Shown here: piece by piece, positions 1 to 60,621 of the stretch
How positions within the stretch are numbered: the first letter of the stretch is position 1
Layout: every line of letters starts with the position of its first letter
From: Armatimonadota bacterium
Lineage (GTDB): Bacteria > Armatimonadota > Fimbriimonadia > Fimbriimonadales > GBS-DC
Assembly (NCBI GenBank): GCA_037445735.1
Contig: JBBIJY010000017.1
Coordinates: forward strand, 1 to 60,621
Reading direction: 5' to 3'
DNA: 60,621 nucleotides
Position numbers and translations under genes: made by a program
Notes under the pieces: generated by a model
Seen by the model: only the letters and a program-made list of their open reading frames with translations
What the model was told of the DNA's origin: nothing
Databases searched by the model: none

Positions 1-115
1 GGCCCCCCCCCCCCCCCCCGCGCAAGCGCGCCTGCCGATGGGGAGCCGGCAGCTCCCTTTCAGCAGGGGCGGTCGATTCTGGCGCTATCCTCCTGATCAG
101 CAACAGCGCTGACAT
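1..115 (-). CDS. Short leader ORF of repeated module, copy 1 (runs off window); [38 protein letters not shown]...
   Basis: Manual translation: ATG at 115, GGAGG RBS, 32 codons then a G17 tract (C-run 3-19). Same architecture as 23201-23326 and 60473-60574. Confidence 0.6.
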
Positions 116-136
116 CACTGCTCCTCCATATTATAC

Positions 137-163
137 ATTCGCAGTATGGACAGGGATTCCTGC
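137..163 (-). promoter_or_regulatory. SigmaH-type promoter GCAGGAATC-N13-CGAAT
   Basis: Shared with 23149-23176 and 60425-60452; resembles the B. subtilis SigH consensus AGGA...GAAT. Confidence 0.6.
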
Positions 164-200
164 TTTTTGGGAGCGGGCAGGGCAGGTACAATTGATTTGT

Positions 201-2006
201 ATGGGCGATCGGCAGCGGTACATTCGGAACTTCTGCATCATTGCTCACATCGATCACGGCAAGTCGACGCTGGCGGATCGGCTGATGGAGTTCACGGGCG
301 CGATCCCGCCCGGCACCACGGTGGAGCAGGTGCTGGACACGATGGAGCTGGAGCGCGAGCGAGGCATCACCATCAAGATGACCGCCGTGCGCCTGACCTA
401 CCACGCCCGCGACGGACACACCTATCAGCTGAACCTCATCGATACGCCCGGGCATGTGGACTTCACCTATGAGGTGTCGCGCAGTCTCGCCGCCTGCGAG
501 GGCGCGATCCTGGTGGTGGACGCCGTGCAGGGCGTGGAGGCGCAAACCATCGCCAACACGAACCTCGCCTACAATCAGGGGCTGATGATTGTGCCCGTCA
601 TCAGCAAGATCGACCTGCCCGCTGCCGAGCCAGAGCGCGTGAAAGAGGAGATGGAACACGCGCTGCTGATCGACCCCGCCGATGTGATCCTTGCCAGCGC
701 GAAGGAGGGCATCGGCATCGAGGAGATTCTGGAGGCAGTAGTGCAGCGCATTCCGCCGCCGTCAGGCAAGCCCGATGCCCCCCTGCGCGCACTGGTGTAC
801 GACTCGCACTATGACCCCTATGTGGGCGTGGTGGCGTATGTGCGCGTGGTGGACGGCAGTGTGCAGCCGGGCGACCGTATTCAGTTTATGTCCACGGGCA
901 GGGTGTTCGAAGTGGCGCAGGTGGGCTACTTCACGCCGCAGCTACGCCCCGCTGAGCGCCTGCACACGGGTGAGGTCGGCTATATCACGGCGGGCATCAA
1001 ATCGGTCAAGGATGCGCAGGTGGGCGACACGATTACTTCGGCGGATCGCCCCGCGCGCGAGCCGCTGCCAGGCTTCCGCAAGGTGAAGCCGATGGTGTTC
1101 TGCGGGCTGTACCCGGTGGAGGGCGACCGCTATCCCGACCTGCGCGACGCTTTAGAGAAGCTCAGCCTGAACGACGCCGCCATCACCTTTGAGCCAGAGA
1201 CCAGCGCCGCGCTCGGCTTCGGTTTCCGCTGCGGCTTTCTGGGGCTGTTGCATATGGAGATTGTGCAGGAGCGGCTGGAGCGCGAGTTCGGACTGGAGCT
1301 GATTGCGACCGCGCCCAGCGTGGTCTATCGCGTGGTGCTGAACGACGGCGCGGTGCTGGAGATCGACAACCCGACGCGCTGGCCCGACGCGGGCAAAATC
1401 GCGCGGGTGGAGGAGCCGATCGTCTATGCGACGGTGATGGTGCCTGCCGAGTATGTGGGCGCGGTGATGGAGCTGTGCATGGGTCGGCGCGGCGAGTTCG
1501 TGCGCATGGAGTACCCCACACCCCAGCGCGTGATCCTCTATTACCGCCTGCCGCTCAGCGAGATTCTGCTCGATTTCTATGACCAGCTCAAGACCCGCAC
1601 GCGCGGCTACGCCTCCTTCGATTACGAGCCAGCTGGCTATCGCGAGGCGGATATGGTCAAGCTGGACATCCTGCTGAATGGCGATCCTGTGGATGCCCTG
1701 AGCTTCATCGCGCCGCGCGAGCGGGCGTATCAGCGGGCGCGCGCCCTCGTGGAGAAGCTCAAGGAGGTTGTGCCCCGCCAGCAGTTCGAAGTGCGCATTC
1801 AGGCGGCAATCGGCTCCCGCATCATCGCCTCGGAGGTCATCAAGCCGTTCCGCAAGAATGTGATTGCCAAGTGCTACGGCGGCGACATCACGCGCAAGCG
1901 CAAACTGCTGGAGCGCCAGAAAGAGGGCAAGAAGCGCATGAAGCAGGTGGGCACCGTCGAAGTGCCTCAAGAAGCCTTCTTGAGCGTGCTGAAGGTCGGG
2001 GACTGA
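201..2006 (+). CDS. lepA: Elongation factor 4 (LepA)
   Basis: [46 protein letters not shown] at 201 lies 8 nt after TACAAT. Confidence 0.98.
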
Positions 2007-2032
2007 CGGGTTCATTCAGAGGGGATTTCACT

Positions 2033-2653
2033 TCACTCCAGAAAACCTGTGTAGTTAAGCAGGGCGACCCAGATGCGTCCGTCCACGCGCTCGATGATGG
2101 AGAGGGCAGCGTTATCCAGTCGGATGCGCCGGTAGGTCTGGATGTCGCCCGCGAGCGCGTCGCAGAGCAGGATGCGGAGGCTGCCCCCGTGCCCCACCAC
2201 AATCAGCTCGCCTTCTGTGTAGCGCTCATAAAGCATCCGGGCGAACTGCTGCACGCGCTCCCAGAAGGCGGTCATCGGCTCCGCTGCGGGCGGCGTGCCG
2301 CCCAGCGGGTCATACAGATAGGTGAAATGGTGTTCGGGGTAGCGTTCGATCACCTCGTCGCGGGTGAGTCCTTCCCACGCGCCCCAGTCGCGCTCGCGCA
2401 GGGCGGGCGTGAGAAGGAGCGGCGCGTTCAACCGTTCGGCAATCACCTGCGCGGTCCGGGCAGCGCGTTGCAGGTCGCTGCTGTAGACGGCGTGCAGCGA
2501 CTGGCGACTGGCAAGCCGCTGTGCCAGCCAGTGCGCCACGCGCTCCGCCTGCTGAGAGCCGACCTCATCCAGCGGCACATCGGAATGACCCTGAATGCGC
2601 CCGATATGGTTCCATGCCGTCTGCCCATGCCGCACCAGGTAGAGCCGCAACAT
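2033..2653 (-). CDS. Histidine phosphatase (phosphoglycerate mutase family)
   Basis: LVRHGQT, SSDLQRA and VGHGG motifs. Start could alternatively be 2665. Confidence 0.92.
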   Translation of the reverse strand: MLRLYLVRHGQTAWNHIGRIQGHSDVPLDEVGSQQAERVAHWLAQRLASRQSLHAVYSSDLQRAARTAQVIAERLNAPLLLTPALRERDWGAWEGLTRDEVIERYPEHHFTYLYDPLGGTPPAAEPMTAFWERVQQFARMLYERYTEGELIVVGHGGSLRILLCDALAGDIQTYRRIRLDNAALSIIERVDGRIWVALLNYTGFLE

Positions 2654-2675
2654 ATCAGAAAGCATACCCCCTGTG

Positions 2676-2708
2676 AAAAAAGGGGGAGCCAGCGGGGAAC
2701 TGGCTCCC
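2676..2708 (-). terminator. Intrinsic terminator after nrdJ
   Basis: GGGAGCCAG...CTGGCTCCC stem followed by T6 on the minus strand. Confidence 0.75.
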
Positions 2709-2743
2709 GATGAGTGAGGGTCTGGAGAGGGGGAGCAAAGCCC

Positions 2744-5700
2744 TTACCCACAGCCATAGGCGGTGCCGCAGTTCAGGCACTGGTGGCACGCGCCCGCACG
2801 CACCATAATCATGCCGCAAACAGGGCAGGGTGGCGCATCCTGCTGCAGTTTCACCAGTTGCGACCAGTCCGTGGTCTCACCCTGCCCTGCGGGTGCAGGA
2901 ACCGTCTCCTTCGCGCCTGCCACGCCGACCGCCTCTGGCGGCTCGCTCGCCTGCGCGACAGGCTGCTCCTCCAGCGAGGATTCGAGCGACTGCTTCTGCT
3001 GCGGCTGCTGGTTCAGAAACTTCAGCGCTAGCCAGCGGAAGATGTAGTCCACGATAGAGGTGGCGACAGGTATCTGCGGGTTGTTCGTGAAGCCGCTGGG
3101 CTGGAAGCGCGTGTAGGAGAACTTCTCCACCAGCTTCTCCAGCGGCACGCCGTACTGCAGCGCGAGCGAGATGGCGGTCGCGAAGGCGTCCATCAGCCCT
3201 GAAATGACCGAGCCTTCCTTCGCCATCGTGATGAAGATTTCGCCGGGCGTGCCGTCTTCGTACATGCCGACGGTGATGTAGCCTTCGTGCCCCGCGATGC
3301 TGAACTTGTGAGTGATGCTCTTGCGCTCGTCGGGCAGGTGGCGTCGGATGGGACGCCCGGTGGTGGCGGGAAGTGACGCCTCCTCGTCGGTCGGCTTCTT
3401 CGTGGAGAGCGGCTGAGTGCGTTTGCTGCCATCCCGATAGATGGCGATTGCCTTCAAGCCGAGCTTCCACGCCTGCATGTAGATGTGCTCGATGTCTTCG
3501 GGCGTGGCGTCGCTGGGCAGGTTCACCGTCTTGCTGATAGCCCCACTTAAGAAGGGTTGCACTGCCGCCATCATCTTCACATGCGCCATCGGGGCGAGAC
3601 TGCGCGTGCCCCTGGCGGGGCGGAAGGCGCAGTCGAACACGGGCAGATGCTCCTCTTTCAGGTAGGGTGCGCCCTCGATGGTGTCGTGCTCATCGATGTA
3701 GCGCGTGATGGCTTCGATCTGCTCGGGCGAATAGCCCAGCTGCTGAAGCGCAAGCGGCACCGTCGTGTTCACTATCTTCAGCAGCCCGCCACCGACCAGC
3801 GTCTTGTATTTCACCAGCGCAATATCGGGTTCAATACCCGTCGTGTCGCAGTCCATCATAAAGGAAATAGTCCCGGTAGGAGCTAATACTGTCACCTGTG
3901 CATTCCGATAGCCGTACTGCTCGCCCAGTTGCAGCATTTCGTCGTAGATGGCGCGCGCCGCCTTCATGAGATAGTCGGGCACATACTGGGCTTGAATCTG
4001 GTTGAGCGCGTCGGCGTGCATGCGCATCACTTCCAGCATCGGCTCGCGATTGAGCGCGAAGCCAGGGAACGGCGCACCGCAGTCGCGCGCGATGATTGCT
4101 GACTGACGGTACGCCTCGCCGTGCATGAGGGCGGTGATAATGGCTGCGTAGGCGCGTCCCGCATCGCTGTCGTAGGGCAAGCCGAGCGACATCAGCAGCG
4201 CACCCAGATTCGCATAGCCCAGCCCCAGCGGGCGGAAGTTGTGGCTGTTGTCGGCGATGCGCTCGGTCGGATACGCCGAGTTGTCCACAATAATCTCCTG
4301 CGCGGTGATCATAATCCGCACCGCTGCGCGGAACGCCTCCACATCAAAGCTGCCATCTGGCAGACGGAACTTCATCAAATTCAAACTTGCCAGATTGCAG
4401 GATGTGTCGTTAAGAAAGACAAATTCTGAGCAATTGGCTACAACAAGACCGTTCACGATGTAGGTATGGTGCAGCGGCTCGGTCAGGTTGTAGGTCAGCT
4501 CATAGCCGTCGAACTCGCGCTCCACAAGGTGAGCGTCGACCCGCACCGCGTAAAACTCATGCTCACGAATCCAGCGCTCCAGGGTTTGCTGTTTGCTGGT
4601 GGTCGCAAAACCGATGTAGTCGTAGAATCGCCGAATAGAGGGTCCGGTGATTCGCAGGTCGTAGCTGTTGCCTAGTGATGAGTAGCTCACCTGCTGACCG
4701 TCGCGCTTGCGCGTGTAGCGGAACCCTGATTGCCTGGGCGGTTGCGTGTAGATGCGGCTCTGGATTCCGAACATCAGCAGCAGTTGTTGCACCTGTTGCA
4801 GGAGGGTCAGCGATTTGCTACCCAGCCCGATGTAGCGGGTGCCTTTTTTCTGATCGTCGTGGGCGCAGCCATCGGCGGTGAACAGTCCGCGCAGGTAAGC
4901 CGCCACGATTTCGGGCGGCGCCTGGAAGATCGAGTCGGGCACGCGCTTCTCAGCGGCTCGGGCTTTCGGCACGCCCAGCGCTTGCAGGAAGCGACCGAAA
5001 GCGGCTCGCACGACACGCAGTTGGACCGTGCCGTTGGTCTGCCGGCTGATGTGCGGACGCAACCCCAGCGACTCCAGCACGGTGCGGTGGCGAGGCAGCA
5101 GTTGTTCCTGTTCCTCGGCACTTCCGTATGTCCAGACAACCATCGGGCTGGAGCGCACAAAGCAGCCATCGCCAGTGAGATGCCCCAGCATCTCTGCGAA
5201 AGGAACCGACCATTCAGAGGGCAGGTTAAGGCGGGCGTGCCGCTCACCTTTGGCACGCAGCTGTTTCCAGTCGGCGGGCACGGGCAGGCTCCAGGAGGCG
5301 TCCACAGGCAAGCAGGGAGCGTCCGTAACCAGCACCACATCGTCCGGTGTTAGCTCGTCGGCGCGTACCATCCCGCGATTGAGCGTGAAGAAGCGATGAT
5401 TCGGCGTGCAGCGCACCTCGATGCCGTTCGAGAATCGCAGGCGCCACACCTCGTTCACGCCGGTGACCATCCACTGCACTGGCTCGCTCAGGCGCACGCC
5501 CTCTTGCGGCTCGCCGGCGGTGCGATTGTGCGTGTAGATGAGGAACGATTCGCCTGCGTTCACGCGCTGAATCAGCTCGCGGAAACGGATGAGACCCTTG
5601 CTGGTGTAGACGAGGCTATCGCCTGTGAAGCAGGGGTTGCTGGCTTCGATGGGACCGCTGTTTTTGACGGTGTGCCAGCGGTTGGTGGTGTCGTGGAACT

Positions 5701-6829: not shown

Positions 6830-6854
6830 AGCCAACCTCCTGACACAAAGGGGT

Positions 6855-7334
6855 TCAACGACTTCGGGACTGACGCGCTTTTTGCATGCGCATCAGCATC
6901 TGCACGACCCGATTGAACTGCTGCGGGTCCTGAAACTCCTCATAGACGGAGGCGAAGCGCACATAGGCGACGGAATCGATCTCCAGCAGTTTTTGCATGA
7001 CCATGCGCCCAATCTCCACCGAGCTGATCTCGGTCTCGGCGCGGTTATGAATCTCCTGCTCGATTTCGTCAACGGCTTTTTCCAGCACCTCCATGCTGAT
7101 GGGGCGTTTGCGGCAGGCGATGACCATGCCCTGCAGAACCTTGTTGCGGTCGAACGGTTCGCGTCGCCCGTCCTTTTTGATAACCATCAGCGGGCGTTCC
7201 TCATAGCGTTCGAAGGTGGTGAACCGCCGTCCACACTGGAGGCATTCGCGCCGTCGACGGATGGCTTTGCCCTCCTGTGTGGGGCGCGAGTCCACCACAT
7301 GGTCCTCCTCACTGCCGCAGTACGGGCACCGCAT
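6855..7334 (-). CDS. nrdR: Transcriptional repressor NrdR
   Basis: MRCPYC, RRRRECxxCGRRFTTFE, ATP cone, VAYVRFASVY. Confidence 0.98.
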   Translation of the reverse strand: MRCPYCGSEEDHVVDSRPTQEGKAIRRRRECLQCGRRFTTFERYEERPLMVIKKDGRREPFDRNKVLQGMVIACRKRPISMEVLEKAVDEIEQEIHNRAETEISSVEIGRMVMQKLLEIDSVAYVRFASVYEEFQDPQQFNRVVQMLMRMQKARQSRSR

Positions 7335-7351
7335 CGTTCACCTCGCCTCAA

Positions 7352-7398
7352 TAGCCACATATGCGGGGTTATTGCTCGTTATCCCCAAGATGTTGTGG
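7352..7398. promoter_or_regulatory. Tandem NrdR boxes
   Basis: CCCCAAGATGTTGTGG (7383-7398) and a weaker TAGCCACATATGCGGG (7352-7367), centres 31 bp apart, between the nrdR promoter and start. Confidence 0.7.
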
Positions 7399-7406
7399 CT
7401 GCCCTC

Positions 7407-7436
7407 TATTATAGCACATCGGATGCGCGTTTGTCA
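7407..7436 (-). promoter_or_regulatory. Sigma70 promoter of nrdR-nrdJ
   Basis: TTGACA-N18-TATAAT on the minus strand. Confidence 0.8.
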
Positions 7437-22118: not shown

Positions 22119-23135
22119 ATGCTGAAGCCAGCGGACAAGAAACTCACGGGCAAGCAGAAAGCGGCGATTGTGCTGGTTGCGCTCGGCACAGAGATCGCCG
22201 CTCAGATCCTGCCGCATCTGAGCGAAACGGAAGTTGAAGAGCTGGGGCTGGAAATTGCCCGACTGGGCAGTATTCCCGCCGATGTGCGCCAGCAGGTCAT
22301 TCGCGAGTTCTATGAGGTGTGTCTGGCGCAGAACCTCGCGCTGGAGGGCGGCATCGATCACGCTCGCGCCTTGCTGGAGCAGGCGTTCGGACCCGAACGC
22401 GCGAACGAGATTGTGAGCCGCCTCACCCGCGCCCTGCAGATGCTGCCGTTCGATTCCATCAAGCGCGTGCATCCCGCCCAGCTCAGCACCTTCCTGCAGG
22501 ACGAACACCCGCAGACGATTGCATTAGTGCTGGCGTATCTGGAGCCGCAGGCAGCGGCAGCGGTGTTGAGCAGCCTGCCACCCGAACTGCGCCCCGAAGT
22601 CGCCGAACGGCTCGCCACGATGGGCAGCACCCCGCCCGAAGTCATCCGCCGCGTGGAGACCGTGCTGCAACGCAAACTCTCCAGCCTCGCCAGCCAGGAA
22701 CTGACCGCCGCCGGCGGCGTCAAATCACTCGTGGATATTCTGCAGTGGGTCGACCGCAACACCGAGCGCACCATCTTCGACGCGCTCAACGAATCGAACC
22801 CCGAACTGGCAGAAGAGGTGCGCAAACTGATGTTCACCTTCGAAGACCTGCTCCAGCTGGACGACCGCTCCATCCAGCAGATTCTGAAAGAGGTGGACAT
22901 GAAGGAGCTGGCGCTCGCGCTCAAGGGCGCCAGCGACGCGCTCAAGGAGAAAATCTTCCGCAACATGTCGGAACGCGCCGTCAACATGCTCAAAGAGGAG
23001 ATCGAGTTTATGGGACCCGTGCGCGTGCGGAATGTGGAGGAGGCGCAACAGCGAATCGTGAGTATCGTGCGCCGTCTGGAGGAGGCGGGCGAGATTGTGC
23101 TGTCCCGCGGCGGCGAGGATGAGATACTGATCTGA
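22119..23135 (+). CDS. fliG: Flagellar motor switch protein FliG
   Basis: KAAIVL, EHPQTIA, MFTFEDL, NMSERA. Confidence 0.97.
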   Translation: MLKPADKKLTGKQKAAIVLVALGTEIAAQILPHLSETEVEELGLEIARLGSIPADVRQQVIREFYEVCLAQNLALEGGIDHARALLEQAFGPERANEIVSRLTRALQMLPFDSIKRVHPAQLSTFLQDEHPQTIALVLAYLEPQAAAAVLSSLPPELRPEVAERLATMGSTPPEVIRRVETVLQRKLSSLASQELTAAGGVKSLVDILQWVDRNTERTIFDALNESNPELAEEVRKLMFTFEDLLQLDDRSIQQILKEVDMKELALALKGASDALKEKIFRNMSERAVNMLKEEIEFMGPVRVRNVEEAQQRIVSIVRRLEEAGEIVLSRGGEDEILI

Positions 23136-23148
23136 ACCCCCTTCAAAA

Positions 23149-23176
23149 GCAGGAATCGCTGCCCCTGCTGGCGAAT
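23149..23176 (+). promoter_or_regulatory. SigmaH-type promoter GCAGGAATC-N14-CGAAT
   Basis: Same motif and spacing as the other two module copies. Confidence 0.6.
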
Positions 23177-23200
23177 CTTTTCATCAGCAGGAGGGTGGCG

Positions 23201-23326
23201 GTGTCGCTGCCGATTTTTTACAGGGTATCGGCTGACACATTGATCGCGACGGCAGAAGGAGGCACTATCGCCTCGTTCCAGGCTCGTGCGCACGCTCGCG
23301 CGGGGGGGGGGGAGGGGGCGCCATGA
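23201..23326 (+). CDS. Short leader ORF of repeated module, copy 2; MSLPIFYRVSADTLIATAEGGTIASFQARAHARAGGGEGAP
   Basis: AGGAGG RBS (23189-23194), GTG start, G11-A-G5 tract at 23302-23318; stop overlaps the next start (ATGA). Confidence 0.55.
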   Translation: MSLPIFYRVSADTLIATAEGGTIASFQARAHARAGGGEGAP

Positions 23327-23571
23327 CCCTCCACGACGACCCGCCCGACCAGCTCCCACCCGAACTCCAGAAAGCCGTGCATCGGGCGCTCGCCCTCACC
23401 CACCGCCTCGCCCCACCGCCCGGCTATGACCCATCCTACTGGCGCGAGGAACGCATCGCCATCGCCAACCTTGCGGTGTGGCGGGCATATTCAGGCTATC
23501 AGCCTGATCGGGGTGTGTCGCTGGAGGGGTTTGCGGTGCGGTGTGCGGTTCGGGCGATATATAGGAGGTGA
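23323..23571 (+). pseudogene. Truncated sigma-70 family factor (region 2 only, SigH-like)
   Basis: LAVWRAYSGYQPDRGVSLEGFAVRCAVRAI resembles sigma region 2 (SigH FAxxCxxRxI); 82 aa with no region 4. Confidence 0.6.
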
Positions 23572-23573
23572 AG

Positions 23574-24845
23574 ATGATGAACAAGCTGACCCTTGAATTC
23601 GTTCTGCTGATCACACTTGCTGGCAGCTGGTCACAATCTGATCAGCCTGTTCGATTGATGCGACTGCCCTATGGTGACTGTGAAAACTGCATCCAGCTGA
23701 TTATTCAGGAGGGTGCAGGAATCGGTCTGTTTGCGGTTGCACCCGACGGTTCCCGCTTCTATCTGAGGGATGGCATGGGTGTGGTACATGTTGTCAACCG
23801 CTCGGGACAGCATGTAGCACGACTGGATGTGCCAATACCGCTGGACTGCACGGCTGTTGGTGCTGATGGCTCTATTGTCTCTGTGGGCGTCTGTCAATCA
23901 ATTGAATTGCGCCGCATGGAGTCTGAGCCATCCAACAGCCAGACTACTGAAAAATCTGCCCCTGATGCCGTAGTTGTTGACGATAATCCATCTCGGCGCA
24001 TCTGGGTGATGAAGCCTGACGGTTCGATTGATCGTGAGCGCACTGATGGTTTCAACCGTGCGCTGGAGCGGTTCATGACCGAGCAAAATCGTGATGAAGG
24101 CGACTGTTTTCGCGAGATCGCCTTCTTTACGGGCAGTCGTTTGGGTCTGGTGGTTATGGCACCTGTGTCGCTCTCGGAAAGTGGTGAAGCATCCCTGCAG
24201 CGAGAGACAGGTTTGCTGATTCTGAATCAGGATGGCAGCTGGCAAGGGCTTTATCCGTGCGTTGCTGCTTCGAAGCGCGGCGCGTTTCTGGAAGATATCC
24301 ACCTGCGCGGATTGGAGGCGCAGCAGCAGTGGGTTCGCCGCGCATTTGACCCGCAAGAATATGTGGACTACCGCATCATCGAAGCAAACGGCGAGGAATA
24401 CAAGCGCGACAAGGCTCCTGCCCATCCAGCGGAGCTTAAGGTGCGCCTGATTCAGGCAGGCGGCAGTGCAACGGACGAGTTCACTCTGCGATTAGAAGCA
24501 GCGGGTGTTCTGCTGTCGGAGCCAGGTGCCCGCCTGGATGCACGCGGAAGGCTATATTTGCCAGGTGCGAAGGTTGAGCGGCGTTTGAGCAGTGTCTCAA
24601 TAGCAGGACAGTCAGAGATTGAGGTTGAAGGGCAAATGATCCAGCCCCGCTTAGGAATGCTTGATGGGTATGTCGTTGCTCGTTTCACTGCTGAGGGACA
24701 GTTTGATCGGATAGTGGCTCAGCTAAAGATACCAACCTACCACTGCCGTCCCTGGCAGTTATGGGATATTGATGAGCAGGGTAATCTCTATTATTTGGAG
24801 TTTACCAGCGATGGTGTGGAAATCTGGATGGTGCCATCTCAATAA
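23574..24845 (+). CDS. Hypothetical secreted protein (possible beta-propeller)
   Basis: Long ORF, signal-like N-terminus, AVAPDG and DIDEQGNLYY segments; visibly more A/T-ending codons. Confidence 0.75.
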   Translation: MMNKLTLEFVLLITLAGSWSQSDQPVRLMRLPYGDCENCIQLIIQEGAGIGLFAVAPDGSRFYLRDGMGVVHVVNRSGQHVARLDVPIPLDCTAVGADGSIVSVGVCQSIELRRMESEPSNSQTTEKSAPDAVVVDDNPSRRIWVMKPDGSIDRERTDGFNRALERFMTEQNRDEGDCFREIAFFTGSRLGLVVMAPVSLSESGEASLQRETGLLILNQDGSWQGLYPCVAASKRGAFLEDIHLRGLEAQQQWVRRAFDPQEYVDYRIIEANGEEYKRDKAPAHPAELKVRLIQAGGSATDEFTLRLEAAGVLLSEPGARLDARGRLYLPGAKVERRLSSVSIAGQSEIEVEGQMIQPRLGMLDGYVVARFTAEGQFDRIVAQLKIPTYHCRPWQLWDIDEQGNLYYLEFTSDGVEIWMVPSQ

Positions 24846-24943
24846 AAGCCCCTGGTATGATGGCATGGAAGCGGGTGAACCATCCTGGCTGCAGGAGCTA
24901 ACTGCGTGGTTTTACAACGGGGCTGGATGAGTATAATGGTGTC

Positions 24944-26986
24944 GTGGGGCAGATGAGACTGGCGCGGATGTTGCCGATTCTGGTGTCGGCTCTTCTCGCC
25001 GTGCTTGCGCCCAGCAGAGGGGCAGAGCAATCAGCGAACACCAGTTCTCAATCGCGTTCCAGCAACAATGCGCTCTTGACCGACACAAGGCTAAGCCAGC
25101 CAGTATCGATAGAGCTAGCGAGCGAGCCACTGAGCATCGTCGTACGGCAACTCAGCCAGCAGGCGAGGGTCAGCCTCGAAGTGGATGCCGAACTGGCATC
25201 CCATCGTGCCTGCCTGTACGCGCTTAATCGCCCGTTGCAAGAGGTGATGGTTCATCTGGCGCAGGCGTTTGACGCGCGCTGGCAGGCAATCGCCTCCAAA
25301 GAGCAGGCATCTACCTATCGGTTAGTGCCGAATCAGAAGCGGGCAGACTGGCTGCGTCAGCAGGCGAAACGGCGGCAGGAGCACTCACTTCGGCAACTTC
25401 AACGGCTACGCAAGGCTCTTCACCGCGTGCAAACCGAGATGAACCAGCCCGTCTCCTACGATGATAATGACGATGATGACACAGGGGGCGTGCCCCGATG
25501 GTACATCCAGACCGTTCGCCAGCAAAATCGGTTCTGGATTGGGCTGCTGTCCCAGCTCCGCGATTCGGAATGGCAGCGATTAGCCGCCGGTGAAACGCTC
25601 TTTTTTAGCAGTCGCGATGAACCGTGCCTGAACTGGAATCTCTTTCAGGAATGGCTGCAGTTTGAAAAAGAGGCAGCGCACAGCGAGCTGGAGTTTCTCT
25701 CCGTTCCACCTCAGATGGGCGCCCCGTACACTGATGAACGCAAGGAGTACCTCTTCGCGTTCTCCGAACGCGCTACCCAGATCGACGAGGTGCGTGTTGC
25801 CCTATGCTGGCGCCCCGCTGAGGATGACGAAGAAGAAAGCAGGCTCAAAATCTATATTGGCTGTTTTGTGCAGGGGCAACTTATTTATGCCAGTGAACTC
25901 TCCGACTGGAAGATGTTCTGGGAAGAGACCGAAGTCGAAACCAGCGAACCCGAACCAGAGCCGTCAGTTCCTCCACTGCCTCAATCGCTAATGGATAAAG
26001 CGCTACCCCCTTTCGAACTCCCTTCCCTCGATCAGGACTGGTTCAGCGTTGCAGGTAAGGCGCTTCTGCACGCCGCGCGTGTCAGCCAGGTGCCGCTGGC
26101 TGCCGAGCTGTACCCGCTGGAAATGGAAATATTGCTACCTATCAAACATAAAGGTGAAACGGATCACGCCATTAAACGATGGGCAGATCTGGCACAGGTT
26201 TTAGCCTATAGCCAGATCAGCGTGAAGGTCTCATCAGAGGGATGGATTGTTATTGGTGCTGGGAGGCGTATGGAGTGGCGGCAGCGCGATGTTCCCCCTG
26301 ATAGGATACGCCGCTGGTTCTACAAACCGAATCGTCGCGGTCGCATTACGCTGCAAGACTGGATGGAGATGGTCGCGATGCACGAATCGCTGCCCTCGCT
26401 GCTCTATAGCTCTTTGAGTATTCTTGGTGAAAAGTACGATCTGGTTGTCGATGTGGAACGGGAGGGCTATAAACCCATCAGAGCATACCTGCCGTTTGAG
26501 CGTGCGCATCGGGGTTTACTGCTTGCCTGTGCCAGCCTGTATCAACCACTGAGTGTCAAAAATGGTGCGATGCTGATTGCCCGGCTGACCCCTGCCCAGC
26601 GGCAGGCACTGGTCAGCGGCAATACGGTGCACTTCGATACACTGTCGCCTGCCGCACAAAATGCTTTCCTGGAGCTGTTATCCCTTTACAGCCCTGCGGA
26701 ACTCCCGTTTTTCTGGCTGTCGCCCGCTCGGCAGCAAACCGAAGCCGCTACGGGCTCAATACGCCTGATTACAGAGACCCGATGGGAGCCAGGCTACCGC
26801 TATCCGCCTGCTCTGCTCAACTCAATAGACACTCTTCAAAAGCTTTGGGAATGGGCCGCGCGACAGGATCATGAGCGCCTGCAAACCTACCTCGTGGAGC
26901 GGGCATATAAGGTTCAGCGCTGCTCGCTGGAGCTTCGGTTAGGCAACAAAACGCGCTACATTCCCATCTTAACAGTTTATCCGTGA
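24944..26986 (+). CDS. Hypothetical secreted protein
   Basis: 680-aa ORF with signal peptide; N-terminal DTRLSQPVSIE...VSLEVD STN-like segment. Confidence 0.75.
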   Translation: MGQMRLARMLPILVSALLAVLAPSRGAEQSANTSSQSRSSNNALLTDTRLSQPVSIELASEPLSIVVRQLSQQARVSLEVDAELASHRACLYALNRPLQEVMVHLAQAFDARWQAIASKEQASTYRLVPNQKRADWLRQQAKRRQEHSLRQLQRLRKALHRVQTEMNQPVSYDDNDDDDTGGVPRWYIQTVRQQNRFWIGLLSQLRDSEWQRLAAGETLFFSSRDEPCLNWNLFQEWLQFEKEAAHSELEFLSVPPQMGAPYTDERKEYLFAFSERATQIDEVRVALCWRPAEDDEEESRLKIYIGCFVQGQLIYASELSDWKMFWEETEVETSEPEPEPSVPPLPQSLMDKALPPFELPSLDQDWFSVAGKALLHAARVSQVPLAAELYPLEMEILLPIKHKGETDHAIKRWADLAQVLAYSQISVKVSSEGWIVIGAGRRMEWRQRDVPPDRIRRWFYKPNRRGRITLQDWMEMVAMHESLPSLLYSSLSILGEKYDLVVDVEREGYKPIRAYLPFERAHRGLLLACASLYQPLSVKNGAMLIARLTPAQRQALVSGNTVHFDTLSPAAQNAFLELLSLYSPAELPFFWLSPARQQTEAATGSIRLITETRWEPGYRYPPALLNSIDTLQKLWEWAARQDHERLQTYLVERAYKVQRCSLELRLGNKTRYIPILTVYP

Positions 26987-53618: not shown

Positions 53619-53887
53619 AGTCTCATAGACCTCCTCAATGAGCGTTTTTGGGCGGGACAACCCTGCCCATTCAGCTGCAACCCTGCCCGCAGGGAGAGTG
53701 CCACTCTCCCTCACCCGCTTTTTAATGACTCGGCAGATGCCCAAAAGCGGACAGGCTTTTTGACGGATGGGTCAGGAAAGCCCGTTCCGCTCCATTATAA
53801 ACCAGAACGCCGCCGAATCGAGCCAGTAGATTTACGGGTTTTGGGGCTTTTCGGACACCCTCGCACCATCAGGTAAAATCCATCGTA

Positions 53888-54832
53888 ATGGAAACCACAG
53901 GCGTTGAGAAGCTGATTATTGTCGGTTCCGGACCGGCGGGCTACACGGCTGCGCTCTATGCGGCGCGGGCAAACTTATCGCCCCTGCTGTTCGCGGGCAT
54001 CCAGCCCGGCGGACAGCTGATGATTACCACCGATGTTGAGAACTATCCGGGCTTCCCCGACGGGGTTCAGGGACCCGAACTGATGGAGCTGTTTCGTCGG
54101 CAGGCGGAACGGTTCGGCACCCGTGTGCTGTATGAGACCATCACCCGCGTCGATTTCAGCCAGCGACCGTTCCGACTCTGGAGCGATTCGGGGAATGAGT
54201 ATCGCGCTCGCGCGGTGATTATCGCCACGGGCGCCTCCGCCAAATGGCTTGGTCTCGAATCGGAAGGGAAGCTCAAGGGGCATGGCGTCTCCGCATGCGC
54301 CACCTGCGACGGCTTCTTCTTTCGCGGCAAGCGCGTGATTGTGGTCGGCGGGGGCGACACAGCGATGGAAGAGGCGCTCTACCTCACCCATCACTGCGAG
54401 CGCGTCTATGTGGTGCATCGGCGCGACGAACTGCGCGCCTCCAAAATCATGCAGGAGCGCGCCTTCCGCAACCCCAAAATCGAGTTCATCTGGAGTACCA
54501 TCGTGCGCGATATCTACGACCCCAATCTGGGTAAAGTGGTCGGCGTGCGCCTGCATAACCTCAAAACGGACGAAGAGTACGACTTCCCCATCGACGGCGT
54601 GTTCATCGCGATTGGACACAAGCCCAACACCGATTTTCTGCAGGGCATTCTGGAGATGGATGAACTGGGGTATATCCGGGTACGCAACGGCACGCACACC
54701 AGCGTCGAGGGCGTGTTCGCCTGCGGCGATGTGATGGATCGGGTCTATCGTCAGGCGGTGACCGCTGCGGGCACCGGCTGTATGGCGGCGCTGGATGCCG
54801 AACGCTGGCTGGCACAGCACGGCGAGGAATGA
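53888..54832 (+). CDS. trxB: Thioredoxin reductase
   Basis: [39 protein letters not shown]. Confidence 0.98.
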
Positions 54833-54847
54833 ACAGGAGGGATCATT

Positions 54848-55486
54848 ATGCGAACAGCGGCACTGATAAGCGGTCTGATTCTGGCGCTGGCACTGAGTGG
54901 GGCGCAGCAACCGTCGGCGCGTCCCAAATCGGCACAACCTGCCCGGAACAACAAACCCGCCCAATCCGCTCCCAGGCAGACTGCGCCTGGCAACCCGGCG
55001 CCTAAAACGGGTTCCTTCACCCTCAAGGGCACGGGCATCAAGTTCTTCTCACGGGCGGACGGCACGCTCACCATCAAGGGGCACGGCTTCGTGATTGTCG
55101 GCGACCTGAAGGGCGAAATCCGCGCACAGGGCTTCCGTGAACTCAAACAGCTGCCGCGCGGCGTCAGCCTGAACCCGCCCATCAACCAGCGGTTCCGGGT
55201 CTTTCATGGCAGGGGCACGCTCACCATCCAGGGCAAATACGACTCGCTGAAAGCCTCGCTCACTGAAGCGGAGATCAGCTTTCGGGGCGCAGGCAGCTTC
55301 GAGATGATGGGCGTCGGCAAGGGTATCCGCAACGGCAAAGAGCTTGTCATCTATCCTTCGGCTGCCACTCCCATCATCGTGCCCGAACCGGCGTGGCAAG
55401 CCCAGCCACCACCCGTGCAACCAGCTCCTGGGGCGATGCTGAAGGGGCGGACCCCACCGGCAAACCCGCCCGCAACCCGCAAATAG
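54848..55486 (+). CDS. Hypothetical secreted protein
   Basis: RBS, signal peptide, Pro-rich termini. Confidence 0.75.
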   Translation: MRTAALISGLILALALSGAQQPSARPKSAQPARNNKPAQSAPRQTAPGNPAPKTGSFTLKGTGIKFFSRADGTLTIKGHGFVIVGDLKGEIRAQGFRELKQLPRGVSLNPPINQRFRVFHGRGTLTIQGKYDSLKASLTEAEISFRGAGSFEMMGVGKGIRNGKELVIYPSAATPIIVPEPAWQAQPPPVQPAPGAMLKGRTPPANPPATRK

Positions 55487-55492
55487 CCCGCC

Positions 55493-58297
55493 ATGCGACT
55501 GCTGGAACTGGAGCTGGAGAACTTTCGGCAGTACGCCCGCGCGGCGGTGGCGTTCGAAACGGGCATCACGGCGATTGTGGGCGCCAACGGCGCAGGTAAG
55601 ACCACCCTCGTGGAAGCCATCCTGTGGGCGCTGTACGGCGCGAACGCCGCCCGCGGCACCGCCGACACCCTGCGCTTCATGTGGTCGCAGGGCGGCACGC
55701 GCGTGCAGGTGCGACTCGACTTCCAGCTCGGCGCCCGACTCTATCAGGTGGTGCGCACCGACAAAGACGCCGCGCTGACCCAGATTCAGAACGGCGTCCA
55801 CCAGACGCTCGCGCGGGGCACACGCCCCACCACCGAAGCCATCCTGAACCTGCTCGGCATGACCCTCAACCAGTTCCAGACCAGCTTCTGCGCCCGCCAG
55901 AAGGAGCTGGAGTTCATGAGCTACGCGCCCGAACGCCGCCGCGAGGAAATCAGCCGCATGCTGGGCTATGAGCGCATCACGAAAGCCATCGACGAAATCG
56001 CCCAGCACGCCAAACAGCTCGGCGCCGAAATCGAAGGGCTTCAGCAGGGGCTGGGCGACCGCGAACTCGTGCAGCAACAGATCGAGCAGACGCGCCAGAC
56101 GCTTGCGTCCTGCGAGCGCGACATCGCCCGCATCGAAGCACAGCTTGCCACCGCCCGCGCCGAATACGAGCAACTCGCCCAGCAACGACGCGAAGCCGAA
56201 CTCAAAAAGCAGACCCACGACACTCTCCAGAACCAGCTCCGCCTGCTCCAGAACCAGCAGACCAGCATCGACAAACTGCTGGAGCAACTGCGCACGCGCT
56301 GGAACCAGATCCAGCAAGCCAGAAGACGCCTGCGCGAGCTTCAATCCGACCTCAAACGCTATCGCGAGGTGCAGCAGCGCCTGAAGGAACTGAACGAACT
56401 GGCTCAGGCGGAACAGCAGCGCGCCGCGCTGACCGCCGCTATCGAACAGCTCCAGCCGCATATCGAGCGGCTCCAGAGCCAGCTGCAGCAACTGGAGCAA
56501 AAAGCGCACCAGCTGCAGCAACTGGAGCCTGTCATCCAGCAGGCGAACCAGATTCAGGCGGAGCTGAGCGCGTTGCGCCAGCAAGCCGCCCGCGCCGCCG
56601 AACGCGCCCGCCTCGAAAATGAGCTGACCACCCTCCAGTCCCGCCTCAACGCCCTCCAGCAACGCCAGCAGGAAGCCGAAAGCCTGCAGGCGCAAATCGC
56701 CCAGCTCGAATCACAGCTGAACGAGGGTGAGGCACAACGCGCCGAACTGCAACAGTGCATCGATCAGCTCACCCGGCAGTGGCATCAGCAGCGCACCGAC
56801 GCCGAAGCCCAGCTGAAACTCCTGCAATCCCGCCTGCAGGAACTCCAGCAACGGCTGGACGAGCTGCACGCGCTGGGTGCGGCGGGCGAGTGCCCCACCT
56901 GCGGTCAACCGCTCGGCGACGCCTACCAGCGAATCTGCCACGAGCTGGAGCAACAGCTGCGGAGCGAACAGGACGCCTATCAGCGTCAGCTCGCCCACTG
57001 CCAGTCGCTGGAGCGGGAGCCAGAGCCGCTCCAGGCGTATCGGGCACAGCTCCAGCAGCTGATGGCACAGCGCGATTCGCTCCAGCAGCAGCTTGCCGAA
57101 CAGTGCACCCGCCACGACCAGATTCAAGCCGAACTCGCTGAACAGCCCGCCCTCCAGCAACAGTGCCGCGAGCTGCAGCGCCGGATCGAAGCCATCCCGC
57201 CCTATGACCCCCAGCGCGAGCAGGCTCTCATCGAGCACCTGCACCAGCTTCAGCCCCAGCTGGAACTGGCGAACGAGCTGAACATCCAGCTCAAGGAGCG
57301 ATCCCGTCTCCAGAACGAGCTGAAAGGGTGTCAGGGCGAACTCCGCACGCTTCAGCAGCAGCTTGCCAGCCTGCCCGAAGGCTACGACCCCACCGAACAC
57401 GCAACCCTGCGCACCGAAGCCGAACAGCTCCAGCCCCTCTATGAAGAAGCCATCCAGCTCAACACCATTCTCAAAGAGGAAGCGCCCACGCGCGAACAGA
57501 TCGAGCAAGCCCAGCGCGAGAAAGGGGAGCTGCAGGCTCAGCTGGAACAGACCCTGCAGGCGCTGCAGGCGCTCGCCTTCTCACCCGAAGCGTACGCGCA
57601 AGCCCTGCAACGGTGTGCCGATGCCGAAGCGCAACTGCGCGAGCTGGAGAACCAGCTCGCCTCCCTGCAGGCGACCCGACAGAGCCATCAACAGCACCTG
57701 CAGATGCTCGAACAGCAACTCCAGCAGATTCAGGAACGCGAGGAGCTATTGAAACACCGTCGCCGGGAGCAGCTGCTTTATGAAACTTTGCGCAAGGCGA
57801 TGCAGGCGTTCCGCACCGAGCTGAACCAGCGCCTGCGCCCGATGCTCGCCAGCTACGCCACCGAGTTCCTCACTCACCTCACGGGCGGGCGCTACACCCA
57901 GCTGGAGCTGGACGAGGAGTACCGCTTCCACCTGATGGACGATGGCATGCGCAAGGCGGTCATCTCCGGGGGCGAGCAGGACATCGTGAACCTCTGCATG
58001 CGCCTCGCGCTCGCACGGCTCATCACCGAGCGCGCGGGTCAGCCCCTCTCCCTGCTGATACTGGACGAGGTGTTCGGCTCGCTGGACACCGACCGCCGCC
58101 AGAATGTGCTGATGCTGCTCAACAACCTGCGCGACTGGTTCGAACAGATTCTCATCATTTCGCATATCGAGGAGATCAACGAGGCGGCGGATCGCACGCT
58201 CTATGTGGTGCGCGACGAGCGCACGCGCGCCAGCACCATCCTGACCCGCACCGCCGACCCACTGTCTGACCTCGCCCTCACCGACCCCGACGCCTGA
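55493..58297 (+). CDS. sbcC: SbcC/Rad50-type SMC ATPase
   Basis: GANGAGKTT, coiled coil with CPTCG zinc hook, ISGGE, LILDEVFGSLD, IISH. Confidence 0.9.
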   Translation: MRLLELELENFRQYARAAVAFETGITAIVGANGAGKTTLVEAILWALYGANAARGTADTLRFMWSQGGTRVQVRLDFQLGARLYQVVRTDKDAALTQIQNGVHQTLARGTRPTTEAILNLLGMTLNQFQTSFCARQKELEFMSYAPERRREEISRMLGYERITKAIDEIAQHAKQLGAEIEGLQQGLGDRELVQQQIEQTRQTLASCERDIARIEAQLATARAEYEQLAQQRREAELKKQTHDTLQNQLRLLQNQQTSIDKLLEQLRTRWNQIQQARRRLRELQSDLKRYREVQQRLKELNELAQAEQQRAALTAAIEQLQPHIERLQSQLQQLEQKAHQLQQLEPVIQQANQIQAELSALRQQAARAAERARLENELTTLQSRLNALQQRQQEAESLQAQIAQLESQLNEGEAQRAELQQCIDQLTRQWHQQRTDAEAQLKLLQSRLQELQQRLDELHALGAAGECPTCGQPLGDAYQRICHELEQQLRSEQDAYQRQLAHCQSLEREPEPLQAYRAQLQQLMAQRDSLQQQLAEQCTRHDQIQAELAEQPALQQQCRELQRRIEAIPPYDPQREQALIEHLHQLQPQLELANELNIQLKERSRLQNELKGCQGELRTLQQQLASLPEGYDPTEHATLRTEAEQLQPLYEEAIQLNTILKEEAPTREQIEQAQREKGELQAQLEQTLQALQALAFSPEAYAQALQRCADAEAQLRELENQLASLQATRQSHQQHLQMLEQQLQQIQEREELLKHRRREQLLYETLRKAMQAFRTELNQRLRPMLASYATEFLTHLTGGRYTQLELDEEYRFHLMDDGMRKAVISGGEQDIVNLCMRLALARLITERAGQPLSLLILDEVFGSLDTDRRQNVLMLLNNLRDWFEQILIISHIEEINEAADRTLYVVRDERTRASTILTRTADPLSDLALTDPDA

Positions 58298-58363
58298 CCC
58301 TTCAATCGTTAGCCTTCCTCACCCTGAGCCTTTTCCTGGAGGCGAGCAGGGGAAACCAGCTAA

Positions 58364-58963
58364 TCACTCTATGCCCCATTCGGGCACGAGCGGCTGCTCC
58401 ACCTTCAGCAGTTGCAGGGCGCGGGCGACGATGGTATCGACGGCTTCTTCCAGCGTGCGCGGGCGGTTATAGAAGGCGGGGCAGGCGGGCAGAATCGTCG
58501 CGCCCGCCTCCGCCGCCAGCAACATATTGCGCAGATGCACGCGATTGAACGGCGCCTCGCGCACCACCAGAATCAGCGGGCGACGCTCCTTGAGGCACAC
58601 ATCCGCCGCGCGGGTCATCAAATCGTCCGACGCGCCGTTCGCGATGCGTCCCAGCGTGCCCATCGAGCAGGGGATAATCACCATGCCGTCGTGGCGGAAG
58701 CTGCCACTGGCGGGCGGCGCGAAGTAGTCGCGCGGCTGAAGCACCTTCAGCCCGTCCCACGCCTCGCCTAACAGCGTTTCCGCGCCGAGCGTCTCGCGCG
58801 TGACGGGCAGCTCCAGCTCCGTCTGCAGCACCTGAATGCCCTGATCGGAGCAGATGAGGTAAATCTCGCGGAACTGTTGACGCGCCGCCTGCAAAAAGCG
58901 CAGGGCATAGAGCGCACCACTCGCGCCCGTGATGCCCATCACCAGCCGACCTGTGGTTCCCAT
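58364..58963 (-). CDS. ubiX: Flavin prenyltransferase
   Basis: GITGASG, ASGS, PCSMGTL, RAADVCLKERRPL, PAFY. Confidence 0.94.
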   Translation of the reverse strand: MGTTGRLVMGITGASGALYALRFLQAARQQFREIYLICSDQGIQVLQTELELPVTRETLGAETLLGEAWDGLKVLQPRDYFAPPASGSFRHDGMVIIPCSMGTLGRIANGASDDLMTRAADVCLKERRPLILVVREAPFNRVHLRNMLLAAEAGATILPACPAFYNRPRTLEEAVDTIVARALQLLKVEQPLVPEWGIE

Positions 58964-59015
58964 CCACCCAGAGCATACCCCATCGGGTATCCTTCTTCTG
59001 CAGGGAGGCGAGCTA

Positions 59016-59810
59016 ATGGCGAAGCGTGGCGTGATGGAGGTGTCGCTCATCTTCCCGCCCGCCGAGATCATCCAGCGGTACTATAAGGGGCTGATCTATC
59101 TGGCGGCGCGCACCTGCTACAGCGAGAAGACACCCCAGCAAATCTGGGACGAGTTCCTGTCCGATAAAGTGCCACCCGAACGGGTGCATAGCCTGCTCAC
59201 GCATGTGATCGAATCGGGACACCACAGCACAATCGAGCATATCAGCTTCACCTTCGCGATTTCGGGGGTGAGCCGCGCGCTCTCGCATCAGCTGGTACGC
59301 CACCGAATCGGCGTCGCGTTCGACCAGCAGAGCCAGCGCTATGTGAAATATAAAGAACCCCTCTATGTGACCCCACCCTCCATCGAGGCACTGCCTGAAG
59401 CGCTGCAGGAGTTCGAACGCCTGCGCGACACGAGTGAGGAGGTCTATCACCGCTTCCTGCAGATGGGCATTCCCGCCGAAGATGCCCGATTCGTGTTCCC
59501 GAACGCTGTCACCACCAATCTGATTATGACGGTGAACCTGCGCCAGCTGATGCACATGGCGGGTCTGCGCCTCTGCACGCTCGCCCAGTGGGAGATTCGG
59601 CAGCTCTTTAAGCTCATTCGCAAGGAGCTGATGGCTGCTGACCCCTACTTTGGCAGGCTGCTGGTGCCCAAGTGCGTGCCGTTAGGCTACTGCGATGAGA
59701 AACGCAACGAGGACGAACACTGCAAGATTCGCCCGCACCGCAATTCGGTCTTTCACGTGTGGGAGCTTTATAAACAGGGCAGACTCATCGAGAGGGGCGA
59801 CGCGGAGTAA
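59016..59810 (+). CDS. thyX: FAD-dependent thymidylate synthase
   Basis: GHHSTIEH, HQLVRHR-X8-SQRY, EDAR, AQWEIR; start chosen from RBS. Confidence 0.95.
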   Translation: MAKRGVMEVSLIFPPAEIIQRYYKGLIYLAARTCYSEKTPQQIWDEFLSDKVPPERVHSLLTHVIESGHHSTIEHISFTFAISGVSRALSHQLVRHRIGVAFDQQSQRYVKYKEPLYVTPPSIEALPEALQEFERLRDTSEEVYHRFLQMGIPAEDARFVFPNAVTTNLIMTVNLRQLMHMAGLRLCTLAQWEIRQLFKLIRKELMAADPYFGRLLVPKCVPLGYCDEKRNEDEHCKIRPHRNSVFHVWELYKQGRLIERGDAE

Positions 59811-59839
59811 AGGGGTATAATTATGATGGGTGTGATGGG

Positions 59840-60397
59840 ATGAATCTGCGAATCGCGCTGACGGACGAGTTGCTGGCGCATGCGGAGCTGGTGGCGCAGG
59901 TGTTCCTGCAAGCGATGTACACCTCCATCGGCGAGCGGATGCTGGAGGAGCTGGCGGAGTCGGAAGTCACCTACTCGCAGATGCAGGCATTGCGCTACTT
60001 GCGCACGCATCGGCGCGTGACGGTGGGCGACCTTGCGGAGGGGCTGAACATCTCCTATCCGTCGGCGACCAACATGGTGCATCGGCTGGAGAAGAAGGGG
60101 CTGATTCGGCGCATCGCGAACCCGCGCGACCGCCGACAGGTGGGGCTGCTGCTCACCGACGAGGGACGCCAGCTGATAGAACAGATCGACCAGGAGCGGC
60201 GGCAGCGGTTCGCCCGCGTGCTGGCACAGATGGACGAACGCGACCGCCATGCGTTCATCAACGGGCTATCGGCGTTCATCCGCGCGGGGCTGGCATCGGG
60301 CACGCTGAAGGTGGACGAGGTATGCCTGCACTGCGGCACCGGCGCCGACCCCCTCTGCCCCCTCGTCGAACTGCACTCACCCGAGATCTGTCGGTGA
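59840..60397 (+). CDS. MarR family regulator with C-terminal Cys cluster
   Basis: wHTH, DRR motif, CLHCGTGADPLCP tail. Confidence 0.9.
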   Translation: MNLRIALTDELLAHAELVAQVFLQAMYTSIGERMLEELAESEVTYSQMQALRYLRTHRRVTVGDLAEGLNISYPSATNMVHRLEKKGLIRRIANPRDRRQVGLLLTDEGRQLIEQIDQERRQRFARVLAQMDERDRHAFINGLSAFIRAGLASGTLKVDEVCLHCGTGADPLCPLVELHSPEICR

Positions 60398-60424
60398 GTT
60401 CAAGCCAAGATCGATTCATTAGAA

Positions 60425-60452
60425 GCAGGAGTCAGATCGCCTGGAAACGAAT
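60425..60452 (+). promoter_or_regulatory. SigmaH-type promoter GCAGGAGTC-N14-CGAAT
   Basis: Same motif as module copies 1 and 2. Confidence 0.6.
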
Positions 60453-60472
60453 CTTCTGAACGGAGGGCGGTG

Positions 60473-60574
60473 ATGCCCGCGCGCTTTGTGTATGGAGTCG
60501 TTGACGAGCAGTTAGGGCGTTCACGCGATGGCGCTCTCGTCCGGCATCCACGCCTGCGCGGGGGGACGCCATGA
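60473..60574 (+). CDS. Short leader ORF of repeated module, copy 3; MPARFVYGVVDEQLGRSRDGALVRHPRLRGGTP
   Basis: GGAGG RBS (60462-60466), G6 tract at 60560-60565, stop overlaps the next start (ATGA). Confidence 0.55.
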   Translation: MPARFVYGVVDEQLGRSRDGALVRHPRLRGGTP

Positions 60575-60621
60575 GCTGCCAGACCCAGCCCTTCCACGAC
60601 CTCCTGCGCGACCTGCCCGAA
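60571..60621 (+). CDS. 5' end of a gene coupled to the leader (MSCQTQPFHDLLRDLPE...), possibly another sigma paralogue
   Basis: Same CGCC-ATGA junction as 23323 and a loosely similar HD...LP.E N-terminus; only 17 codons visible. Confidence 0.4.
   Translation, partial: MSCQTQPFHDLLRDLPE

Follow-up and report, generated by a model that had tools for sequence, protein, structure and literature searches.

A stretch of 60,621 nucleotides (nt) from an Armatimonadota bacterium of the order Fimbriimonadales (assembly GCA_037445735.1), hereafter the window, carries three copies of a module in which a tract of G residues lies between a short leader and a gene of the sigma-70 family. The window is the entire contig JBBIJY010000017.1 (here C17) of a genome bin that comprises 2.78 Mb in 59 contigs with 62% G+C. 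The module consists of a promoter-like box (AGGAAT-N14/15-CGAAT), a strong ribosome-binding site (RBS), a leader of about 30 codons, the poly-G tract (5-17 G, interrupted by an A in some copies) and a start codon that overlaps a TGA stop codon. The leader frame is constrained, the tract is polymorphic in length, and all three frame relations between leader and sigma gene occur. Judged from these sequences, the module probably acts by slipped-strand phase variation with a three-state translational outcome.

In the mechanism that we propose, the sigma paralogs would be transcribed from a promoter class widespread in this bacterial family, the box named above, and translation would start at the strong RBS and run through about 30 codons into the poly-G tract. 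Tract length would shift by slipped-strand mispairing at replication, as comparisons of alleles suggest. In a first state, the leader would be in frame and yield an N-terminally extended sigma factor. In a second state, leader translation would end at the conserved TGA overlapping the sigma start, and a sigma factor of native length would be made, either by termination and reinitiation or by direct initiation with the G tract as Shine-Dalgarno sequence. In a third state, ribosomes would pass the sigma start out of frame and stop 25-100 codons further on, the start being occluded and the gene silenced. Heritable switching, translational coupling and the assignment of ON states are what we infer from this layout.

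Tract length and reading frame in the poly-G module

Three pairs of near-identical alleles differ in tract length by a single G. Loci L119 (G10) and L179 (G11) overlap over 684 nt with one mismatch and one gap column beside the tract, L131 (G8) and L189 (G9) over 670 nt with no mismatch and again one gap column beside the tract, and L083 (G11) and L258 (G12) over 601 nt with no mismatch. The frame relation was scored in 30 copies, namely 18 rows from genomes and 12 metagenome copies among the loci listed. Leader and sigma gene are fused in 13 of them, the leader ends at the overlapping stop in ten, and it reads through past the sigma start in seven. Within one allele family, G10 gives read-through, G11 overlap-stop and G12 fusion. 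Public gene calls comprise both long forms, in which leader, GGG and sigma sequence are joined, and short forms that begin at an internal Met. The first-pass annotation of the window had proposed a switch driven by poly-G slippage; the alleles differing by one G are as it would have them, while the switching itself is deduced from their comparison.

Besides its extra G, L258 has a 4-nt duplication (CCAC) in the sigma coding region about 120 nt past the tract, and protein P0007 runs out of frame for about 35 residues and is back in the sigma frame near the site of this duplication. The two observations together suggest a second slippery site or compensating indels.

Concerning the leader, 20 modules were examined, and one (L201), in which no RBS with start was recognised, was left out. 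In the frame set by the RBS-linked start, none of the 19 remaining modules has a stop codon before the tract; each of the two alternative frames is open in far fewer of them (6 and 4) and has 20 and 18 stops, respectively. The context from RBS to start is conserved as GGAGG-N5/6-CGATG. As far as reading frames can tell, the leader is probably translated, and its frame is constrained. It had been described as a leader peptide, and a separate open reading frame (ORF) ending at the overlap does exist, but in most relatives the leader stands in frame with the sigma gene and is therefore more aptly regarded as a 5' coding segment subject to phase variation than solely as a separate leader peptide. 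Regarding a structured RNA, Rfam gave 0 matches in the window and the folds of five leaders had z-scores of -0.3 to -1.85. A riboswitch or attenuator is unsupported, since there is no Rfam match and no fold is convincingly beyond shuffled sequence.

The junction between leader and sigma gene is also conserved. A start codon followed by A, and thus containing TGA in the overlapping frame (xTGA), is found just past the tract in 16 of 18 scorable genome rows and in all 14 metagenome copies among the loci listed (12 scored and 2 read from the sequence), that is in 30 of 32 copies in all. By comparison, an A directly after the start codon of the leader itself is seen in no more than 1-3 of 19 modules. 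The sigma start codon lies 2-8 nt past the tract, and up to 10 nt in one copy. In the copy at C1:88380, the tract has decayed (GGCAGGAGGTGGCGG) and both the leader and a GTGA overlap are kept; the coupling layout therefore appears to be maintained on its own.

All three loci of shared architecture that the first-pass annotation had described were recovered by sequence inspection where it had placed them, with the CGCnnGCGC context and the CGCC-ATGA ending that it had pointed out. In both complete copies its frame assignments hold as well. They are at present in the overlap-stop state, one additional G would fuse leader and gene, and loss of one G would carry the leader past the sigma start.

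Copy 1 lies on the minus strand and is divergent from lepA (201-2006, plus strand). Its box (GCAGGAAT-N14-CGAAT) occupies positions 137..163 and is read from 163 to 137. GGAGG at 127-123 precedes a leader ORF (20..118) that may start at GTG 118 or ATG 115 and stays open for 32-33 codons up to the tract. The sequence directly before the tract is CGCTTGCGC, on the same strand, and the tract itself is a G17 run (3..19) followed by CC and the contig end, so that the sigma body is off the contig; the end of contig C26 is a candidate for it on sequence grounds.

Copy 2 lies on the plus strand, with its box (GCAGGAAT-N15-CGAAT, 23149..23176) 14 nt past the stop codon of fliG. The RBS GGAGG (23190-23194) is followed by a leader ORF of 43 codons (23195..23326) with the tract G11-A-G5 (23302..23318), in which the A gives rise to a GGAGG located 7 nt upstream of the ATG. 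The leader ends with CGCC-ATGA, its TGA overlapping the next ATG at the junction (ATGA, 23323-23326), and the gene behind it (23323..23571) encodes 82 amino acids (aa) of the sigma-70 family with region 2 only (Pfam Sigma70_r2). A simple scan finds a weak hairpin followed by T6, resembling a terminator, in the first leader codons of copy 2 (window 23194-23220), and none is seen in copies 1 and 3. For copy 2, no sigma-70 consensus promoter was found within 22950-23700.

Copy 3, also on the plus strand, has its box (GCAGGAGT-N15-CGAAT) at 60425..60452, GGAGG at 60462-60466 and a leader ORF of 34 codons at 60470..60574, which contains a G6 tract (60560-60565) and ends with ACGCC-ATGA (ATGA at 60571-60574). 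The first 17 codons of a sigma-family gene follow (60571..60621) before it runs off the contig, and its N-terminus resembles those of the sigma genes of relatives.

The module had been predicted to be dispersed, which a scan of related genomes bears out. A strict pattern, defined as the box, 95-125 nt and at least seven Gs, occurs in 6 of 41 genomes at about a dozen loci, and the reversed pattern has 0 matches. Protein-anchored searches added further module copies beyond the strict pattern. A pattern scan of metagenomes returned at least 120 loci; 14 of those listed carry the sigma family, and the rest were taken as chance matches.

The sigma-factor family behind the modules

Profile hidden Markov models agree with the proposal that the downstream genes belong to the sigma-70 family. 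All eight full-length relatives pass PF08281 or PF04545 (region 4), seven of the eight have region 2 at E <= 0.01, and the product of copy 2 scores 31.2 bits on Pfam Sigma70_r2 PF04542 (cut-off 24). A protein search detected homologs in 16 of the 41 related genomes, their open frames spanning about 180-250 aa. The sigma query matches 14 of 24 genomes of the same bacterial family as against 1 of 16 others of the order. NCBIfam was searched with three proteins, and the best 25 of 31-44 matches per protein at E <= 0.001 were considered. Among these, only the generic sigma70-ECF superfamily TIGR02937 passed (53-67 bits, cut-off 42.9), none of the three proteins reached a subfamily cut-off, and no SigH model is listed, which speaks against the SigH kinship that had been suggested. 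Among solved structures, FliA, WhiG and extracytoplasmic function (ECF) sigma factors are the closest in sequence.

The family is narrow: a database of 5.8 billion yields only 16 clusters of proteins at E <= 1e-5. Its named clusters come from Fimbriimonadales/Armatimonadota bins and are labelled hypothetical or 'sigma-70 family', and one relative is from 'Armatimonadetes bacterium DC'. The sigma protein thereby indicated the phylum, on which LepA, with best identities of 55-66% scattered over many phyla, was uninformative. By these profile and similarity searches, the downstream genes are predicted to form a narrow, Armatimonadota-specific family of two-domain sigma-70 factors with regions 2 and 4. 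As to an anti-sigma partner, the ORFs after the sigma gene in 11 loci encode varied small secreted or membrane proteins among which no conserved partner is seen by eye; no anti-sigma profile search was made.

Two further sigma genes of the genome are interrupted between regions 2 and 4. One of them, on the minus strand at C20:4380-5100, has the promoter box of the modules and no leader, and is split there by G7 (C20:4599). At C16:24560-25350 (minus strand), a sigma gene lies in two frames with no homopolymer between them, and may be a pseudogene or an assembly error.

The sigma gene of copy 2 is, by comparison with its paralogs, a truncated remnant without region 4. Its homology to an intact paralog ends at about 23559, a contig from the same public sample carries the intact paralog sequence beyond this point, and the end of contig C26 holds the matching remainder of a paralog. 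The stop of the remnant overlaps the GTG start of the next ORF (GTGA, 23568-23571). Directly behind the remnant, two ORFs of 425 aa and 680 aa (23568..26986, plus strand) have about 55% G+C and, by eye, hydrophobic N-termini resembling signal peptides; neither matches Pfam or NCBIfam. Related strains (runs X2 and X3), which are 95-99% alike over fliG, depart from the window straight after the fliG stop (window 23140 onward). At this site, copy 2 and the low-G+C genes behind it therefore seem to be peculiar to the strain.

Both window ends lie within module copies, and the suggestion that the assembly breaks at a multicopy or variable element stands. At the right end, a repeat of 347 nt (60260..60606, plus strand) matches C7:2347-2693 with 100% identity; beyond it the two contigs part, and the second copy of module 3 on C7 sits before a different gene than the copy in the window. 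The contig ends at copy 3 because of this shared repeat. The left end breaks at the G17 tract of copy 1, and 10 of 118 contig ends of the assembly fall in the sigma family or its promoter box.

Long G tracts in the genome and competing explanations

The length distribution of G/C runs in the genome is bimodal: 39 runs comprise 7 bases, 5 comprise 8, and 15 have at least 9. By eye, 13 of the 15 long tracts lie at gene boundaries, mostly 16-35 codons past the start of genes for secreted proteins or regulators. Sigma genes are touched by six of them, comprising the tracts of window copies 1 and 2, one before another sigma-like gene (C44), two at the 3' ends of sigma genes (C3, C59) and one located 33 codons into the gene following a sigma gene (C7). 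Two concern LuxR-type genes, one in a leader module ending in G9-CACC-ATGA (C13) and one splitting a small gene (C1). The remainder are mostly in large secreted proteins, with six tracts 16-30 codons past the start (galactose-oxidase-like, PKD-domain and unknown), and one is intergenic. Several of the secreted-protein tracts lie, by eye, behind canonical TTGACA-N17-TATAAT promoters. From this distribution, the modules seem to belong to a larger set of contingency loci spread over the genome.

Some of these tracts deserve separate mention. At C1:2352-2699 (L100:853-1199), a small regulator is split into ORFs of 58 aa and 72 aa by a C15 run that reads as five proline codons, and the second ORF, of 72 aa, shows a LuxR-like helix-turn-helix by eye. 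At C18:10992, 3 nt separate a G12 run from the downstream ATG of a gene for a protein of 874 aa whose N-terminus resembles a signal peptide; the upstream leader passes this ATG out of frame, a layout like that of the sigma modules without the TGA overlap. The two bases before the tract are GC in 14 of the 15 long tracts and AC in one. Seven relatives (G017, G019, G024, G029, G037, G039 and G040) have dozens to hundreds of overlapping G9 matches, several of them in the first 100 bases of contigs; some of these may be contig-end sequencing artefacts or assembly breaks at real tracts.

For the genome under study, a sequencing artefact of contig ends is ruled out as the source of poly-G, as only the tract of copy 1 touches an end and the other 14 are internal. 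Runs of poly-A/T of 9 or more were considered as parallel switches and ruled out by eye, as they look like terminator tails and intergenic runs.

Several points weigh against slipped-strand phase variation. All genomes are metagenome bins, and homopolymer length may be miscalled in such assemblies. Four public runs, present as contigs, break beside the tract and show no inserted or deleted letters; they are uninformative on heterogeneity. The kin are not independent (L140 duplicates L083), and leader start codons were chosen by a pattern rule. Moreover, the three overlap-stop copies of the genus carry short or interrupted tracts (G6, G5AG4, G11AG5) that may be stable. The fused state is found in 0 of 10 scorable long tracts of the genome, including all six large secreted-protein genes, which fits an OFF default and also fits expression by transcriptional slippage. 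Finally, MutS-family genes (two) and MutL are present in the genome, which rules out loss of mismatch repair as the cause of the tracts and means that slippage may be rarer than in repair-deficient Campylobacter.

The absence of fused tracts and the presence of mismatch-repair genes both lend support to a first alternative, namely that the DNA is no heritable switch and that RNA polymerase slippage or ribosomal frameshifting at the tract yields a mix of products, whose proportions are tuned by the length of the DNA tract. RNA polymerase slippage on long homopolymers is established for A/T runs. In the same direction, two of the six secreted-protein genes lack a start codon of their own past the tract. 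On the other hand, otherwise identical alleles differ in length at the DNA level, all three DNA states are about equally common, and interrupted tracts (G5AG4, G11AG5) would be unexpected if transcriptional slippage were the selected function. We consider this alternative rather unlikely as a replacement for slipped-strand phase variation, and slippage on RNA or the ribosome is compatible with DNA switching, as the two mechanisms are not exclusive.

In a second alternative, the module would be a fixed element. The G run would act as a Shine-Dalgarno-like sequence for the sigma start and also encode a linker of glycines, the leader would be an upstream ORF coupled in the ordinary way, and the variation in length would reflect neutral drift or errors of assembly and have no regulatory use. 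In favour of this, the tract stops 2-8 nt short of the sigma start, as a Shine-Dalgarno sequence would, the interrupting A produces a perfect GGAGG, the copy with the decayed tract retains leader and overlap, and the data all come from metagenome assemblies. However, tracts of 9-17 G far exceed the need of a ribosome-binding site, and run lengths are bimodal genome-wide. Similar tracts also lie in the 5' coding regions of unrelated secreted-protein genes with no internal start after them, and three independent allele pairs differ, the mismatch and the duplication described above aside, solely by one G in the tract. A fixed element is thus an improbable account of the modules.

A third alternative concerns the box. 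Its pattern has 3 matches in the window as against 0.02 expected from 100 shuffles, and the strict box has 33 matches in the genome, where ten shuffles give 0-2 and the reversed sequence gives none; chance is therefore excluded. The spacing is 14 in 23 of the 33 matches and 15 in nine. The box had been regarded as a mark of the module, which it is not, since copies of it in this genome also precede core genes. These include a primary-type sigma-70 gene (regions 1.1 to 4), rpoN (sigma-54), dnaE (DNA polymerase III alpha) and genes for a four-S1-domain protein, ParA, a rhomboid protein and others; sigma-70-family genes or their leaders follow 10 of the 33 boxes. All 25 genomes of the bacterial family have 5-35 boxes each, compared with 0-3 in the 16 genomes of sister families and 0-1 in reversed controls. 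From its geometry, the box would be a lineage-typical promoter class used by some major holoenzyme.

Promoters of Bacillus subtilis sigma-H have an AGGA-type -35 element and a GAAT-type -10 element, and the box resembles this Bacillus consensus. Elements and spacing are similar, whereas here core genes are served in a non-Firmicute host. That the sigma paralogs recognise the box themselves, as an autoregulated SigH-type family with feedback on their own and each other's promoters, was part of the initial proposal and is now highly improbable: 10 of the 33 boxes do precede sigma-70-family genes or leaders, and most occurrences of the box as well as of the sigma subfamily fall within one and the same bacterial family (5-35 vs 0-3 boxes; 14 of 24 vs 1 of 16 genomes), but autoregulation is doubtful because the box is general across the bacterial family and not specific to the module (rpoD-type, rpoN, dnaE and S1-domain genes), core genes carrying it would hardly rely on minor sigma factors that switch stochastically, the best 25 NCBIfam matches per protein include no SigH model, and several paralogs on one box would be redundant.

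Relation to known systems and biological meaning

Poly-G/C contingency loci in 5' coding regions have been described for Campylobacter jejuni, Neisseria and Haemophilus (PMC8355987, PMC2651432, PMC2831843). The loci share with the modules a long homopolymer few codons past the start, the occurrence of in-frame as well as out-of-frame alleles, tract lengths that differ in near-identical strains, and a large number of loci per genome, mostly in genes for surface or secreted proteins. In contrast to pathogen contingency loci, the modules occur in a free-living subsurface/hot-spring Armatimonadota host with MutS and MutL genes, and their targets include a whole sigma paralog family. Unlike plain ON/OFF contingency loci, the conserved start/stop overlap offers a possible third outcome here.

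Among sigma factors, SigH of Staphylococcus aureus has been described as a cryptic sigma factor that is activated in rare cells (Morikawa et al. 2012, PMC3486894). As described there, this case resembles ours in that a spontaneous, reversible DNA change in a subpopulation creates an N-terminal fusion of a minor sigma factor, and in that the 5' leader of S. aureus SigH controls translation too (PMC3486894). In S. aureus, however, the change is reported to be a tandem duplication that arises at 1e-5 or less and concerns a single gene, whereas here a homopolymer and a paralog family are involved.

With respect to regulators, mucA of Pseudomonas aeruginosa contains a G5 tract. The regulators flgR and flgS of C. 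jejuni are phase variable, with tracts of fewer than 7 repeats (PMC8355987). In all three genes, a homopolymer in a regulator gene alters a whole regulon at once, as it would here. Unlike the modules, however, the tracts of flgR, flgS and mucA are short, largely non-reversible and without the leader/overlap layout. The literature that we searched, which did not extend to subscription journals and supplements, contained no report of homopolymer sigma switches in Armatimonadota nor of the leader/overlap layout.

That homopolymers drive phase variation in host-adapted pathogens is textbook knowledge, and the usual explanation is evasion of host immunity. In the present case, such a device is found in uncultured subsurface/hot-spring Armatimonadota, where it is concentrated on transcription factors, and the start/stop overlap conserved behind the tract suggests a design with three states. 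Inconsistent gene calls (long, short and split) and assembly breaks arise because of the poly-G modules, and the lineage-specific promoter class can be used to annotate these genomes.

Tentatively, this free-living thermophilic lineage might possess a stochastic sigma network in which each paralog has its own poly-G counter with three heritable translation states, an extension that we regard as possible and rather doubtful. If it were true, single cells of a clone would differ from one another in which sigma regulons, and which of the secreted-protein genes behind them, they express. Such a network would correspond, at the level of sigma factors, to the phasevarions of pathogens, in a setting that lacks a host immune system, with phage pressure or patchy substrates as likely selective agents. 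If the tracts do switch, the lineage would diversify its expression programmes through mutation and not through sensing, which bears on bet-hedging in the environment.

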